IMG/VR virus record: IMGVR_UViG_3300037336_000025
Span: 64,001-128,000 of that record
DNA from: a virus
Direction: 5' to 3' (one strand)
Length of the DNA stretch: 64,000 bases
The position numbers were made by a program, and so were the translations under genes. The notes below the pieces were generated by a model, which had not been told where the DNA came from, did not search any database, and saw only the letters and a program-made list of their open reading frames with translations. Positions 18,279 through 24,247 of the stretch are shown here, in pieces; the first letter of the stretch is position 1; the number at the start of each line of letters is the position of its first letter.

Positions 18279-18836
18279 ATGCGACTAACTGAAATCTTAA
18301 CTGAATCACAAGAACTTGAAGAAGGACCGTTAGGTGCTATTGGTCGTGGACTAGCTAAGGGCATTGGCGGGGTTGCTAAAGGCGTTGGTATGATTGGCGG
18401 CATTGCAGGTGGCGTTAAGAAAGCGTACCAAAAAGGTAAAGCTACTTCTACTGCAACCATTGCAGGTGATGTTCCAGATGCAGAACAAGATCCAGCTGCA
18501 GAACAAGATCCAGCTGTGAAAAAAGCATATGACGATGAATATGCTAAAGTTACGGCTCCTAAGAAAGCAGCTCCTAAGAACGCAGCACCAATGGCAGCAG
18601 CATCTGGGTACAAACAAGCACAGCAGGCCATTGCCACTTTAAAGCCTAGCGAGAAACAGAAAATTCTTGCTATGCTACAAACTTCAATGACAGCGCCGGC
18701 TCCTGTACGCAAAAATCCAGTTAGAGTTACTGGCAGAGCAGCAGCTCAACCAGCTCAACCAGCTATGCAGACTCAAAGTAAAGTTAATAGCGGTAAAGTA
18801 GTTGCCGAAGGCTTTACATTGTTCCGTCAAAAGTAA
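18279..18836 (+). CDS. Late Ala/Lys/Pro-rich protein, probable head-internal protein
   Basis: TAAATA at 18224-18229 upstream; N-terminal MRLTEILTESQELEEG with L-x-E sites like gp21 cleavage motifs; perfect 18-nt tandem duplication (AEQDPA x2, 18480-18515). Confidence 0.5.
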   Translation: MRLTEILTESQELEEGPLGAIGRGLAKGIGGVAKGVGMIGGIAGGVKKAYQKGKATSTATIAGDVPDAEQDPAAEQDPAVKKAYDDEYAKVTAPKKAAPKNAAPMAAASGYKQAQQAIATLKPSEKQKILAMLQTSMTAPAPVRKNPVRVTGRAAAQPAQPAMQTQSKVNSGKVVAEGFTLFRQK

Positions 18837-18850
18837 TATATACAGCCAAC

Positions 18851-18877
18851 AAAAAGCCTGCTTTAAGCAGGCTTTTT
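18851..18877. terminator. Bidirectional intrinsic terminator between convergent genes
   Basis: AAAAAGCCTGCT-TTA-AGCAGGCTTTTT, a perfect inverted repeat with T-tracts on both strands. Confidence 0.85.
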
Positions 18878-18882
18878 TATGA

Positions 18883-19113
18883 TTAAAAGAAAGGTAAGTT
18901 AGTTTTCTTTGTAGTCTCTAAGTTTTCTTTAATAATCTCAGCAACAATTTCTCTTTCATCATGACTTAGATTCATGCCTTCACTATAAGAAAGACCTCTC
19001 ATGTACCAACACATTTTGAGAACGTCTTTCTTGATTCCCTTAACCTCAGACTCCATCCGTTTGGCTATCTGTAAAATCTCCGGCAAAGGGCTGTTTAAGA
19101 TTTTACTGCGAAA
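18883..19113 (-). CDS. gp51-like C-terminal module, probably translated as the -1 frameshift extension of the gp26-like ORF
   Basis: The -1 frame is open from the slippery site: FRSKILNSPLPEILQIAKRMESEVKGIKKDVLKMCWYMRGLSYSEGMNLSHDEREIVAEIIKENLETTKKTNLPFF. No Shine-Dalgarno precedes the TTG at 19086. Confidence 0.6.
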   Translation of the reverse strand, partial: FRSKILNSPLPEILQIAKRMESEVKGIKKDVLKMCWYMRGLSYSEGMNLSHDEREIVAEIIKENLETTKKTNLPFF

Positions 19114-19119
19114 AAATTT
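19071..19119 (-). promoter_or_regulatory. Candidate -1 programmed ribosomal frameshift signal
   Basis: In-frame A_AAT_TTT (19119-19113), overlapping T_TTT_TTC, then a 6-nt spacer and a 9-bp stem GTAAAATCT/AGATTTTAC (19106-19098 with 19079-19071). Confidence 0.7.
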
Positions 19120-19961
19120 GATTGGTCCATTGTCACAGGTAGTAAGAACTCCTTATGACAGTCTCCGCATTGGACATCTTTTGCTTTAAACTCTATAGTA
19201 TCTTTAATTTTAGTAATGTGTGTTTGGATAGCTTCAAATACATCTTTAGATGAATTATTAATAAAGTCTTTGATCTGAACTTTATCGTCAGTGGATCCGT
19301 CTGGAGTTTCAATATGTGTAATGCAATCTGCAATAATATCAACTGTGAGTTCAGTTAGTCTAACAAAACTTTCACCAAACTTTTCTAACTTTAGTTCATC
19401 GCTGATTTCTTCATTATTGATAATACTAAAAATCTTCTGTTGCTCTAGTGTTTTAATTGATGCTTTTGTAACTTCTTTATAGTTGTAAGGTCTCACATGC
19501 ACGTTTAGCGGCCCAGCTTCTACAATTGAATTGTAAGTAAATTGGCTAAAGATACCAATCCAGTCTGACAGGTTGATATCGTAGGTATTTTCTTCTTTGC
19601 AATGTGGACAGTCTACTCTAACTTCCATGTTTTCGCCGTAGGTAGCGATGCGGATAGCAATGAGTGCAAAGTCTAGATCAATACTGGGCATTGCCCAGGG
19701 ATCTAAAATAGCAGGAATACAACTTTTAATAACTTCAACTGTACTTTGCCCGCTTAACAGTGCATCAGGAGTTTTAAACATTAACTCGTCTTTGGCAGTC
19801 ATTGAGTATACAGGATATTCTTCGTTTGCACTAACGTCTAATGCACCTGGGGGATAGAATCGACCTTGACTAGGCAATCTCACATAGATTTTAGGCTGTC
19901 TATACCAATTAGCCAAAGGATTTAATTTTGGCGTTTGCGGTATATTTACATTTTGATTCAT
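19095..19961 (-). CDS. gp26: Baseplate hub assembly protein, gp26-like (288 aa from ATG 19961)
   Basis: NPLANWYRQPKIYVRLPSQGRFYP...SMTAKDELMFKTPDALLSG...CPHC...CGDC zinc-ribbon pairs; GGAGA SD before ATG 19961 (the ORF-track start at 20045 overlaps the divergent gene). Confidence 0.75.
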   Translation of the reverse strand: MNQNVNIPQTPKLNPLANWYRQPKIYVRLPSQGRFYPPGALDVSANEEYPVYSMTAKDELMFKTPDALLSGQSTVEVIKSCIPAILDPWAMPSIDLDFALIAIRIATYGENMEVRVDCPHCKEENTYDINLSDWIGIFSQFTYNSIVEAGPLNVHVRPYNYKEVTKASIKTLEQQKIFSIINNEEISDELKLEKFGESFVRLTELTVDIIADCITHIETPDGSTDDKVQIKDFINNSSKDVFEAIQTHITKIKDTIEFKAKDVQCGDCHKEFLLPVTMDQSNFFAVKS

Positions 19962-20029: not shown

Positions 20030-22528
20030 ATGGCATCAGTAACAATTGATATACCAGGCATAGGAAATGTAGAAGCTAAGAATGCAGCGTCTGAAGCCAC
20101 CTTACGAGAGTTAGTCAGTGCTATTAAGGGAATGAAAGGTGGAAAAGGTAATAAAGACGACGAAAAGAATCAGAGAGATCGAAATAAAAATCAGAAAGAA
20201 GATAACGGTAACCGGAAAGCTAGCACTGATCATTTTAAAAGACTAACAGTTGGTATCAGTAGCGTTGTTGGAGGGTTCTTTACTCTAGGTAATAAACTAA
20301 CCAGCACTGTTAGCCAGTTCGCTCAGTTAGATGGTTCAATTACAGATGCAGCTGATATATTTAAACAGTTACCAATTGTGGGCGGCCTAGTAGGTGGAGC
20401 ATTTGGAGCAGTTGCTGGCGCAGCTGATAGAGTTACTAAATCATTTGTAAATGCCGCAGGCGGCGGAGCAAGTTTCGGTGGAAGCATGGCTAGTTTCTCT
20501 GCATCAGCATCTCAAGCTGGCATGAACATGGCAGAATTTGGATCATTAATTAAAAATAACGGCGCTGGCTTGATGGCCTTTGGTACAACTACCGAAGATG
20601 GTGCTAAAAACTTTGCACAAGTTTCAAAATCAGTACGGTCAACTAGTTCAGAGTTATATGCACTAGGTATGAGTAGTCAAGAAATTAATGGCGGTCTTAT
20701 TCGATATGGTGCGTTATTAAGAAGTCAAGGGTTGTCTGGCGGTAAGACTAATGCTCAACTAGCACAAGGTGCAAGGACATATCTAAAAGAGATGGACGGC
20801 CTTGCAAAGATTACCGGCGAAGAACGTTCTGCTAAAGAAGCACAAGCAGCAACACTGGCTAAAGATGCACAGTTCCAAGCAGCAATGGCTGGACAAAACG
20901 AAGAAGTACAAAAGTCTTTTAGAAATACTGTTCTCGGATTGCCAGAACCGTTGCAGAACTTTACCAAAGATATGTTGGCCAACGGTACAGCAACTACTGA
21001 AGAGAATCAAAAGTTGTTAGCGCAATTGCCTCAGTCGGCGGCTATGTTAACTACTATGCAACAGAAGATGCAGCGTGGTGAAGCGGTTACTGATGCAGAA
21101 CGTAACGCTCTTAACAATAAAATGAAGGAAGAGGGTGCAAAGAATCTAAAAAATATTAAAAGTGCAGCAGCAGCCGATGCTAGTCTTGCAGGAACCACTA
21201 ATGCACTGGCAGCCACTTACCAAATTGCCACAGACGGTGTGAAGAAAGCAGGGGAACAACAGGGCGAAGCTGCAAAGAACACTGACAAGATGAATGAGAA
21301 GATGCAAAAGTTTCAGCAAAGTCTTGCAGAAATTGGAAACGCTTTTTCAATGGCATTAGCTGGAAGTGGTATGCTTGATGTATTAATGGGAGCATTTAAA
21401 ATTGTTGCCGATCTAGTAACAACTTATGTGTTACCTGCCTTTATGATTTTTAGCGATATTATTACACAAGTTGGTATGTATCTTGTAACAAATTTAAAAC
21501 CAATATTTGAAAGTATTGGAAACTTTATTAGAGATAGCCTGTACCCAGCTTTCCTAACTTTGGCAGCATTTGTGTTGGTAGATATTGTTCCAGTACTGCA
21601 AACAATGGCCACAGTAATATCCGAATATGTTACTCCGGTGTTATCTGTTATAGGTCAAGTATTTCAATCAGTTGCATCTTTCATTGCTGATAATTTTATG
21701 CCTATAATGTACGGTCTAGGTGCAGGGCTTGCAACATTAACTACTTTATATCTAATTAAAAACGGAGTATTACTAGCTGCAATTGTTGCGCAAAGCGCAT
21801 TAACTTTAGCAATGGCACTATTAACTAGTCCGATATTCTTACTTATTGCAGGCGTTGTTACATTAGTTGCTATTTTTAAATCATTATATGATAGTGGTTA
21901 CACATTTAGCTCTGCACTTGACATGATTGTTGACAATATTTTAAATTTAATAAACAAGATTACGTTTGGCTCAACAGGAATTAGTGACGATGAGCTCAAA
22001 TCTAGAAATGATAAACGAGATCTAGAAAAAGAAAAGATAGCAGCTGAGCGCGATGTTGATAGCAATAAAACTGCCAGAGCAGAAAAAGCTGCTGAAATTG
22101 ATAAAAAATTAATTACTTTAAAAGACAAACACGTTAAGAAATTAGGTGTTGAAAACGATAAAACAGAAGCAGCACAATCAAAGACTAATTTTAATACAAG
22201 CAACAGTTTAGATTTGTTAAAATCCGAAGTAGCAATTGCCGGAGGTCCAAAATCAGGCGGTATGGCCACAGCTGAAACCGGAAAGAGAGATATTGAAACT
22301 AAAAAAGAAGCTGAAGTTAAAGCCAAAGCAGACGAAGAAGAGATGAAGAAATCAGGAGGTGCCGCTACTGCTACTGCACCTACTCAAGAATCAGCAGAAT
22401 CATTACTTGCTAGCTTAAATACTAAGTTGGAGCAGTTAATAAAAGTAAATATGAACATGAAAGATGTTCAAGATAGACAGCTTACAGTGCAGCAAGGATT
22501 GAGCGGTGACTTATTTGCCAGCGTCTAA
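20030..22528 (+). CDS. Tail tape measure protein (gp29-like)
   Basis: 832 aa, Ala/Gly/Gln-rich helical, periodic aromatic residues and long hydrophobic segments (about aa 455-615); located between gp26 and the portal. Confidence 0.75.
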   Translation: MASVTIDIPGIGNVEAKNAASEATLRELVSAIKGMKGGKGNKDDEKNQRDRNKNQKEDNGNRKASTDHFKRLTVGISSVVGGFFTLGNKLTSTVSQFAQLDGSITDAADIFKQLPIVGGLVGGAFGAVAGAADRVTKSFVNAAGGGASFGGSMASFSASASQAGMNMAEFGSLIKNNGAGLMAFGTTTEDGAKNFAQVSKSVRSTSSELYALGMSSQEINGGLIRYGALLRSQGLSGGKTNAQLAQGARTYLKEMDGLAKITGEERSAKEAQAATLAKDAQFQAAMAGQNEEVQKSFRNTVLGLPEPLQNFTKDMLANGTATTEENQKLLAQLPQSAAMLTTMQQKMQRGEAVTDAERNALNNKMKEEGAKNLKNIKSAAAADASLAGTTNALAATYQIATDGVKKAGEQQGEAAKNTDKMNEKMQKFQQSLAEIGNAFSMALAGSGMLDVLMGAFKIVADLVTTYVLPAFMIFSDIITQVGMYLVTNLKPIFESIGNFIRDSLYPAFLTLAAFVLVDIVPVLQTMATVISEYVTPVLSVIGQVFQSVASFIADNFMPIMYGLGAGLATLTTLYLIKNGVLLAAIVAQSALTLAMALLTSPIFLLIAGVVTLVAIFKSLYDSGYTFSSALDMIVDNILNLINKITFGSTGISDDELKSRNDKRDLEKEKIAAERDVDSNKTARAEKAAEIDKKLITLKDKHVKKLGVENDKTEAAQSKTNFNTSNSLDLLKSEVAIAGGPKSGGMATAETGKRDIETKKEAEVKAKADEEEMKKSGGAATATAPTQESAESLLASLNTKLEQLIKVNMNMKDVQDRQLTVQQGLSGDLFASV

Positions 22529-22543
22529 TAATAGGATAATATA

Positions 22544-24247
22544 ATGAGTTGGAAAAAATACTTCACCCCAGTAGACACATCGAATCAATCAGGATCAATG
22601 AGTCCATTGGGCGGCCAAGGGCGGCCCGGGCCAGCTCGTACTAATTACTCAAGCTACTTGCCAGATGTATACGCAGGTAGTCCGAACCGTATTGAAAAGT
22701 ATATTCAATACGACACAATGGATATGGACAGTGAAGTTAACGCTGCATTAGATATCCTTGCTGAATTTTGTACACAGCGCGATAAAGAAAACGAAACACC
22801 GTTTAGTACACACTTCCGCGGCAAGCCAACTAGCACTGAAGTTAAACTAATTAAAGACAGCCTGCAGAAGTGGGTCAAGCAACAACAATTTGAAACACGT
22901 ATATTCCGCATTGTGCGTAATGCATTCAAATACGGCGACTGTTTCTTTGTACGTGATCCTGAAACTAAAAAATGGCTATTTGTTGATGCTGCTAAAGTAA
23001 GCAAAATTATTGTAAACGAAAGCGAAGGTAAAGTTCCTGAGCAGTATGTTATTAAAGATATGAACTTCAACTTTGCAAATCTAGTTGCAGTTACTCCACA
23101 CGGAACATCTAACACTAGCCCTAGCGGTACAAGCTCTTACACCACAGGTGGCGGATTTGGACGCGGTATGGTTGGTGATATGGGACAGTCTCCTGGTACA
23201 CGTTTTCAAAATGCTTCAAACGAATTTTGCGTTGATGCAAAAGATGTTGTGCATATTTCATTAAGTGAAGGACTAGATAGAAACTATCCTTTCGGCAATA
23301 GCTTGCTAGAATCAGTATTCAAAGTTTACAAGCAAAAAGAATTGCTGGAAGATGCAATTATTATCTATCGTATTCAACGTGCGCCTGAACGTAGGATTTT
23401 CTATGTTGACGTGGGTAATATGCCAGCACACATGGCCATGAGCTTTGTTGAACGTGTTAAAAACGAAATACAGCAGCGCCGCATTCCTAGTGCTAGTGGC
23501 GGCGGTTCAAACATTGTTGACTCAAGTTATAATCCATTAAGCACTAACGAAGATTATTTCTTTCCGCAGACAGCAGAAGGTCGCGGATCAAAAGTAGAAA
23601 CGTTACCAGGCGGTACTAACCTAGGTGAAATTACTGACTTACGCTTCTTTACTAACAAGTTATTCCGTGCGTTGAGAATTCCCAGTGCTTACTTGCCAAC
23701 AGGTGTTGAAGAATCAAGTAACTCAGTTGCCGATGGCAAAGTTGGCACAGCATACATTCAAGAACTACGATTTAACAAGTACTGCGAACGGTTGCAGGCA
23801 ATGGTTGTCGAAACATTCGACTTAGAATTTAAGTTATGGATGCAGCACCAAGGCATCAATATTGATTCAAGTTTGTTTGACTTAAGATTTAATCCTCCGC
23901 AAAACTTTGCTGCTTACCGTCAAGCAGAACTTGATACTACTCGTGTTGGAGTGTTTGCGCAGGTGCAAGAAATTCCACATATGAGCAAACGTTTTGCTAT
24001 GAAACGATATCTTGGTCTTACTCAGGAAGAGATTGTAGAAAACGAAACATTATGGCGCGAAGAAAACGGCAACAAGCTAAAAGCATCTACAGATGCAGCA
24101 AGCGAGATGCGATCAGCAGGTATTACTCCAAGCGGTATGTCAGCTGATTTAGGCGGCCAAGATGAAACAGCTCCTGATGATATGGCAGCAGCAGCCGAAG
24201 CAGGCGCAGCAGCCCAGGCACCTGCAGAAGAACCTCCAGCAGTATAA
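22544..24247 (+). CDS. gp20: Portal protein
   Basis: MDMDSEVNAALDILAE, YGDCFF, LLEDAIIIYRIQRAPERRIFYVDVGNMP, EDYFFPQTAEGRGSKVETLPGGTNLGEITDLRFF are T4 gp20 motifs. Confidence 0.95.
   Translation: MSWKKYFTPVDTSNQSGSMSPLGGQGRPGPARTNYSSYLPDVYAGSPNRIEKYIQYDTMDMDSEVNAALDILAEFCTQRDKENETPFSTHFRGKPTSTEVKLIKDSLQKWVKQQQFETRIFRIVRNAFKYGDCFFVRDPETKKWLFVDAAKVSKIIVNESEGKVPEQYVIKDMNFNFANLVAVTPHGTSNTSPSGTSSYTTGGGFGRGMVGDMGQSPGTRFQNASNEFCVDAKDVVHISLSEGLDRNYPFGNSLLESVFKVYKQKELLEDAIIIYRIQRAPERRIFYVDVGNMPAHMAMSFVERVKNEIQQRRIPSASGGGSNIVDSSYNPLSTNEDYFFPQTAEGRGSKVETLPGGTNLGEITDLRFFTNKLFRALRIPSAYLPTGVEESSNSVADGKVGTAYIQELRFNKYCERLQAMVVETFDLEFKLWMQHQGINIDSSLFDLRFNPPQNFAAYRQAELDTTRVGVFAQVQEIPHMSKRFAMKRYLGLTQEEIVENETLWREENGNKLKASTDAASEMRSAGITPSGMSADLGGQDETAPDDMAAAAEAGAAAQAPAEEPPAV

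Follow-up and report, generated by a model that had tools for sequence, protein, structure and literature searches.

The question raised by this locus is whether a single baseplate gene of a giant phage is read into two proteins, a short one and a longer one that share an N-terminus. The window, which is the whole 64,000-nucleotide stretch of DNA that was analysed, comes from a 186-kb IMG/VR record with an estimated completeness of 53%, and the phage is described as a giant freshwater phage. The gene in question lies on the minus strand and is gp26-like: it matched PF12322 (T4_baseplate) over residues 63-284 with 63.9 bits against a curated cut-off of 24.5, matched phrog_150 (baseplate hub) at 3.5e-22, and was the sole PF12322 match in the 186-kb record. 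Its nearest cultured relatives, at 29-33% identity, are found in Sinorhizobium phage Phosso, Agrobacterium phage Atu_ph07, the PA5oct group and the RaK2/CBB-like giant phages. The features at the locus are as follows.

19095..19961, minus strand: gp26-like baseplate-hub assembly gene, 0 frame, 288 aa and stop (short product)
19110..19119, minus strand: slippery run A_AAU_UUU_UUC, consisting of two overlapping in-phase heptamers, A_AAT_TTT (19119-19113) and T_TTT_TTC (19116-19110)
19071..19106, minus strand: putative stimulatory hairpin, 9-bp stem of GTAAAATCT (19106-19098) paired with AGATTTTAC (19079-19071), 18-nt loop
18883..19116, minus strand: -1 frame extension, 77 codons and stop, of which codons 3-77 are the 75 residues added in the 359-aa long product

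On the minus strand, the 3' end of the gp26-like gene reads ATG GAC CAA TCA AAT TTT TTC GCA GTA AAA TCT TAA. The 0-frame codons are TCA at 19121-19119, AAT at 19118-19116, TTT at 19115-19113 and TTC at 19112-19110, and the stop TAA occupies 19097-19095. The X_XXY_YYZ phase is correct for both heptamers, and a slip at either of them yields the same 359-aa protein. From 19116 the -1 frame is open to a TAA at 18885-18883, and it includes the listed 67-aa ORF that begins with TTG. The computed products are 288 aa (32.7 kDa) and 359 aa (41.1 kDa), the long one with the junction ...DQSNFFRSKIL, and the predicted trans-frame junction peptide of the ..SNFFR type in the window is EFLLPVTMDQSNFFR. The first-pass annotation of this DNA, made from its letters alone, had described the gene end, a phased A_AAU_UUU and a 9-bp stem with an 18-nt loop, and all were located at the positions listed above; direct reading also bore out its 67-aa TTG ORF without a Shine-Dalgarno inside the -1 frame, and its predicted products of 288 and about 359 aa agree with those computed here.

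We interpret the locus as a programmed -1 ribosomal frameshift close to the 3' end of a single PF12322 (gp26/gp51-family) baseplate-hub assembly gene, and we place the probability of this reading at about 90%. It is an inference from comparison of sequences, without ribosome profiling, junction peptide or reporter data. Proteins of 288 and 359 residues would be obtained from one gene because some ribosomes slip back by one base on the TTTTTTC run.

About 170 loci were read overall, from three IMG/VR sets and five cultured phages. The first set consisted of 80 IMG/VR loci at 59-99% identity together with Phosso, Atu_ph07 and the window (83 loci), the second was found with a fused homologue as query and added 38 further frameshift-type loci, and the third contributed 45 more. 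Scans of IMG/VR with other queries returned few loci for PA5oct and none for the Vibrio phage. In the first set, TTTTTTC was in phase in 83 of 83 loci and followed by the 0-frame stop 3-8 codons on, AAATTTTTTCG was present in 78 of the 83, and the -1 frame was 77-79 codons long in all complete loci. The second set had TTTTTTC in phase in every one of its 38 loci, all with TTTTTTCG, and the third in 44 of 45, the remaining locus having TTTTTTA. The same run and arrangement were observed in the cultured phages PA5oct, CBB, Vibrio phage 2.275.O, Phosso and Atu_ph07, with protein identity falling to about 30%. Judged on these counts, the in-phase conservation of TTTTTTC is far beyond chance. The TTTTTTA locus is L184:4782-4810 (T_TTT_TTA), and its -1 frame still reads K-F-F-R-A-T-I-L.

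The universally conserved heptamer was T_TTT_TTC (once T_TTT_TTA), whereas A_AAT_TTT was restricted to the window's clade, so that in clades without AAA only T_TTT_TTC is available for a slip. The first-pass annotation had correctly recognized phased heptamers at this position and had given first place to A_AAT_TTT, the clade-restricted one. Among the TTTTTTC loci, no synonymous alternative to the codon pair TTT TTC was found, and the first of the two Phe residues is not conserved in in-frame relatives (NQF, EYF, VTF). Because TTT TTC is invariant while the first Phe varies in the fusions, the T run is kept at the nucleotide level and not at the protein level.

The hairpin downstream of the run begins 6 nt from A_AAT_TTT and only 3 nt from T_TTT_TTC, and its loop contains both the 0-frame stop and the TTG at 19086. 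Across the 61 distinct sequences of the window's clade, the stem was paired in 90.3% of cells. Pair 24-51 was GC in 42 of these sequences, AU in 18, GU in 1 and unpaired in 0, and its two columns, which are the most informative of those that covary, are synonymous third positions of the -1 frame. In addition, pair 21-54 changes from UA to CG in 7 sequences. The covariation score was 0.182 compared to 0.099 for shuffles, none of 500 of which reached it, and slid controls gave at most 0.097. The window's own hairpin has a folding energy of -10 kcal/mol (z -2.2), is AU-rich and is of moderate stability. Other clades have different, often stronger stems at the same place, as expected of a frameshift stimulator. 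With respect to conservation across orthologous loci, which the first-pass annotation had proposed as a check, the heptamer, the frame offset and the stem were all kept, the last with covariation. An H-type pseudoknot between the loop sequence CCCUUUG and a downstream CAAACGG was also considered, and it was rejected with 45.7% pairing across relatives.

A search with a profile of the extension matched 497 cluster representatives, and among the best 150 there are about 20 single proteins of 319-351 aa that carry the extension at their C-terminus. P0002, P0003 and P0004 are of this same fused type and carry PF12322. The fused junction ..LDFSNQFRNKLI.. aligns gap-free to the predicted trans-frame ..MDQSNFFRSKIL... 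In the two fused loci L100 and L101 the DNA reads TAT TTT CGG with no slippery run, and they are therefore true fusions and not homopolymer errors. A maximum-likelihood tree requires no fewer than two transitions between frameshifting and fusion, with P0002-4 nested within a frameshift clade (SH-aLRT 97).

In an AlphaFold2 model of the fusion P0003 (pLDDT 91.5, pTM 0.88), the extension forms four confident helices. Foldseek of this model against the PDB gave nothing below E 0.26, and sequence searches of solved structures found no relative. A BFVD search with the same model returned gp26/gp51-family models only, without aligned ranges, and in the absence of these ranges coverage of the tail by the matches cannot be judged. 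A further protein, P0001 (145 aa, from a single 1685-nt JGI contig), is a close relative with 78% identity in the extension, and a single frame of it covers ..MDQANFFRSKIL.. (through ..NFFRSKIL..). Three origins are conceivable for it, namely an error at a T7 homopolymer, a real fusion of recent date, or a transcript that had slipped.

Related loci were also read for additional copies of the gene and for the -1 frame, and the following features were located.

L100 4072-4923: short PF12322 paralogue P0256, directly downstream of the fused P0003 on a 260-kb contig, 42% identity to the N-part, gap-free
L145 2979-3996: short PF12322 paralogue directly upstream of the fused gene in the independent fused lineage L144/L145, ending at the junction position
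L084:3331-3555 (NC_071039 about 77650-77874), minus strand: PA5oct -1 frame after gp336 (baseplate hub), 75 codons, homologous to the extension

The short paralogue in L100 likewise ends at the junction position, and it has neither the T run nor the extension. Thus an adjacent short paralogue was observed in both fused lineages with readable DNA (2/2). No second PF12322 copy was found within 4 kb in about 45 frameshift-type loci of the third set, and among complete genomes PA5oct, Atu_ph07, CBB and Phosso have 1 PF12322 gene each and T4 has 2. Compared with these in-frame fusions (P0003 with P0256 in L100, and L145), the window has the same two domains in the same order with a colinear junction; the difference is that the fusions lack the slippery run and obtain the short form from a second gene, whereas the window uses one gene. 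Fusions accompanied by a short paralogue, taken together with single-copy frameshift genomes, indicate that one slipping gene appears interchangeable with two genes, and both the short and the long form seem to be needed. The short copy in L145 has lost its CxxC motifs, which are invariant in the long forms.

We then weighed other explanations for the same arrangement. The frame of 67-77 codons might be a separate small gene, initiated on its own (at TTG 19086 or ATG 19056) or by termination-reinitiation, with the T run encoding no more than a conserved Phe-Phe. Such a gene would suit the position of the TTG, 8 nt past the stop in the window, the small ORFs that gene callers and GenBank annotate at the site, and the situation in Phosso and Atu_ph07 (L001:3010, L002:3010), where an ATG overlaps the 0-frame TGA in an ATGA stop-start three codons past the heptamer. 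The start codon, however, varies in both position and kind. Across 70 distinct loci, the -1 frame first offers an ATG, GTG or TTG at codon 4, 9, 11, 15, 21, 27, 32, 35 or 39, and in 16 of them the first canonical start comes at codon 35 or later; the position of the window's TTG is occupied by CTG, TTA, GTG, TCA or CCG in relatives. The 75-codon frame of PA5oct, which is unannotated in RefSeq, contains no ATG, GTG or TTG anywhere. Reading of the window's sequence upstream of TTG 19086 and ATG 19056 found no purine-rich Shine-Dalgarno. As judged from column entropies of 0.77, 0.42 and 1.15 at codon positions 1, 2 and 3 over codons 3-10, the -1 frame shows coding periodicity from its third codon onward, and the best-conserved residues of the N-terminal part of the extension, F-F-R-x-K/R-I/L-L, stand directly after the slip. 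Codons 5' of every candidate start are coding-constrained, and they align to the fused proteins, in which the unconserved first Phe again marks TTT TTC as a constraint on nucleotides and not on protein. In Phosso and Atu_ph07 coupled initiation may yield the extension as a free peptide alongside the fusion, but it cannot be the general mechanism by which the extension is expressed. Overall, we consider a separate gene very unlikely.

Transcriptional slippage, in which an extra U inserted by RNA polymerase at the T6 run would generate a fraction of in-frame fusion mRNAs, accounts for a homopolymer run exactly at the junction and for P0001, whose unbroken single frame is what a T7 template or transcript would give. 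On the other hand, efficient slippage of the polymerase is hardly expected on a run of only six T, and P0001, known from one 1.7-kb contig, is maybe a homopolymer sequencing error. The conserved seventh base (C; A once) and the conserved, covarying hairpin on its 3' side point to re-pairing of tRNAs and to a roadblock for the ribosome rather than to polymerase slippage; we regard this explanation as very unlikely too. The existence of fused relatives would also allow that no recoding takes place and that the -1 frame is the decaying remnant of a formerly fused C-terminal domain, but about 170 loci keep the frame whole, at exactly 77-79 codons, and synonymous changes make up 64-81% of the single-base codon differences in it, which leaves this last possibility hardly credible. 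What counts against the programmed ribosomal frameshift itself is the 3-nt spacer from T_TTT_TTC to the stem, the modest, AU-rich hairpin, the ATGA in Phosso and Atu_ph07, and the closeness of the TTG to the stop.

According to the ribosomal frameshift reading, most ribosomes would translate five more 0-frame codons and release the 288-aa protein, while a fraction would slip back one base on A_AAU_UUU_UUC, at either or both heptamers, aided by the hairpin that starts 3-6 nt downstream. The slipped ribosomes would stay in the -1 frame and add the 75-residue helical domain, giving the 359-aa protein with its ..SNFFRSKIL.. junction. Short and long forms would thus be made in a fixed ratio from one gene, where T4 and some relatives use two paralogous genes instead. 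The sequence data show the signal and how it is conserved, the coding nature of the -1 frame, the existence of fused homologues and the distribution of gene copies; that slipping occurs, and with what efficiency, is inferred. The central proposal of the first-pass annotation, that -1 recoding lets one gene yield two forms of different length, was supported by each of the comparative tests it had suggested.

The surroundings of the gene were examined as well, and the following features flank it.

18851..18873, no strand assigned: terminator-like hairpin AGCCTGC-TTAAA-GCAGGCT, between an A run and a T run
20030..22528, plus strand: 832-aa neighbour, divergently oriented and listed for context, a candidate for a tape measure or a hub protein
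22544-24247: portal gene, next after the 832-aa neighbour

The hairpin at 18851-18873, which was read from the sequence and is unlisted by a simple scan, looks like a bidirectional intrinsic terminator closing the gp26-like gene. It is common to the frameshifted gene and a convergent 185-aa ORF (18279-18836, plus strand), which is Ala/Lys/Gly-rich, has short internal repeats (DPAAEQ twice, APK-type) and gave no family match. On the other side, the 832-aa neighbour had a single, weak family match (phrog_3981, E 0.01). Sequence searches of solved structures found no relative of it, and family searches with this protein and its counterparts found no robust tape-measure family. The counterpart in L100 (L100:189-2969, minus strand; 927 aa) contains an endolysin-like stretch at residues 710-798, and some tape-measure proteins carry such a stretch. 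The 832-aa neighbour is therefore only weakly tape-measure-like by its phrog_3981 match, and its identity as a tape measure is not shown.

No description of this frameshift was found in the literature and the GenBank records examined for the relatives' loci, and at the extension these records have either nothing or a small orphan ORF annotated. For annotation, the finding would supply a missing protein in giant phages that serve in research and in practice, among them PA5oct, CBB, Atu_ph07, Phosso and the RaK2-like group.

The closest known system is phage T4, for which Leiman et al. (2010, PMC3004832) list gp26 and gp51 as chaperones of hub assembly, with gp51 being essential and missing from the virion. 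On the basis of this T4 literature (PMC3004832), a chaperone role in hub or tail assembly is inferred for both forms, at the central hub or the tape measure. T4 gp26 (208 aa) and gp51 (249 aa) both matched PF12322 end to end, the latter over residues 1-201, and gp51 consists of a gp26-type domain and about 48 extra C-terminal residues absent from gp26, which confirms the description in the first-pass annotation of gp51 as a gp26 paralogue with a C-terminal segment. The window phage and T4 have in common the PF12322 family and a short and a long form, and the T4 genes stand beside hub and tape-measure genes. In T4, however, the two forms come from separate, divergently transcribed genes without a frameshift, whereas the window phage has one gene in two frames, and the extension in the window is about 25 residues longer than the gp51 tail of T4.

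The two tails were compared by profile, with a gp51-tail profile built from 97 gp51 tails. With hhalign, the extension profile aligned to it over 31 columns (P 1.6e-4, probability 50%), and the alignment, which lies in the second half of the extension, matches R-G-x-S-Y..M.L...E-R..I..I-I-K-E to K..Y.L..I-M.M.P.E-R...L.L.E-K. The score of 25.3 was reached by none of 150 column shuffles (mean 10.4, sd 2.4, max 20.4), and for scale, the N-terminal domains, which Pfam joins, gave P 1.3e-4 in the same kind of comparison. The full-length fused profile against the gp51 profile covered the N-terminal half only and is thus silent on the tails. BLASTP of the extension against T4 gp51 gave no match, the A2 profile against the single gp51 sequence gave 2% probability in the wrong place, so that the signal is seen only profile against profile, and PF28602, the gp51-tail family, is absent from the precomputed domains of the fused P0002-4. 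Homology of the extension to the gp51 tail is, on these profile comparisons, suggestive only and not established. The motif through which the first-pass annotation had likened the extension to gp51 is indeed the part that aligned, and the likeness remains unproven. If the relationship between one slipping gene and two genes holds, T4 biology would gain a concrete, testable reason for the gp26/gp51 paralogy and, through the ratio of forms or their separate supply, a handle on the poorly understood assembly of the hub.

The second system for comparison is the G/GT pair of phage lambda. Xu, Hendrix and Duda reportedly described in 2004 a conserved -1 frameshift in tail assembly chaperone genes (lambda gpG/gpGT), and E/E+E' of P2 is a comparable frameshifted pair. 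Like lambda G/GT, the window gene has a -1 slip on an X_XXY_YYZ heptamer near the end of a tail-assembly gene, would give a short product and a C-terminally extended one with the N-terminus in common, and adjoins a large candidate tape-measure gene. Unlike lambda G/GT, it is divergent from its 832-aa neighbour, neither upstream of it nor co-oriented with it, and does not lie between tube and tape-measure genes. There were no sequence matches to TAC families in Pfam or PHROGs, and VIA-align of the P0003 model gave generic helical-hairpin matches only (residues 149-206). The likeness to G/GT is one of shared logic; family membership is not shown and binding to a tape-measure or tube protein is undemonstrated. 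The link to the G/GT pair drawn in the first-pass annotation therefore stands for the logic, but lacks a TAC match and the expected gene orientation.

Within one family, a single need appears to be met in three interchangeable ways, by frameshifting, by fusing the two parts in frame beside a short paralogue, or by keeping two genes that have diverged, and this bears on the evolution of recoding. It is possible, although we would give it somewhat less than even odds, that in T4-type phages the frameshifted pair corresponds to the lambda G/GT chaperones, with the short and long PF12322 forms acting together on a tape-measure or hub protein, and that gp26 and gp51, long a puzzle in T4, are this pair split into two genes by duplication. 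If the window's pair is such a counterpart of G/GT, a chaperone in two forms would be a general requirement of long-tailed phages, T4 relatives included.
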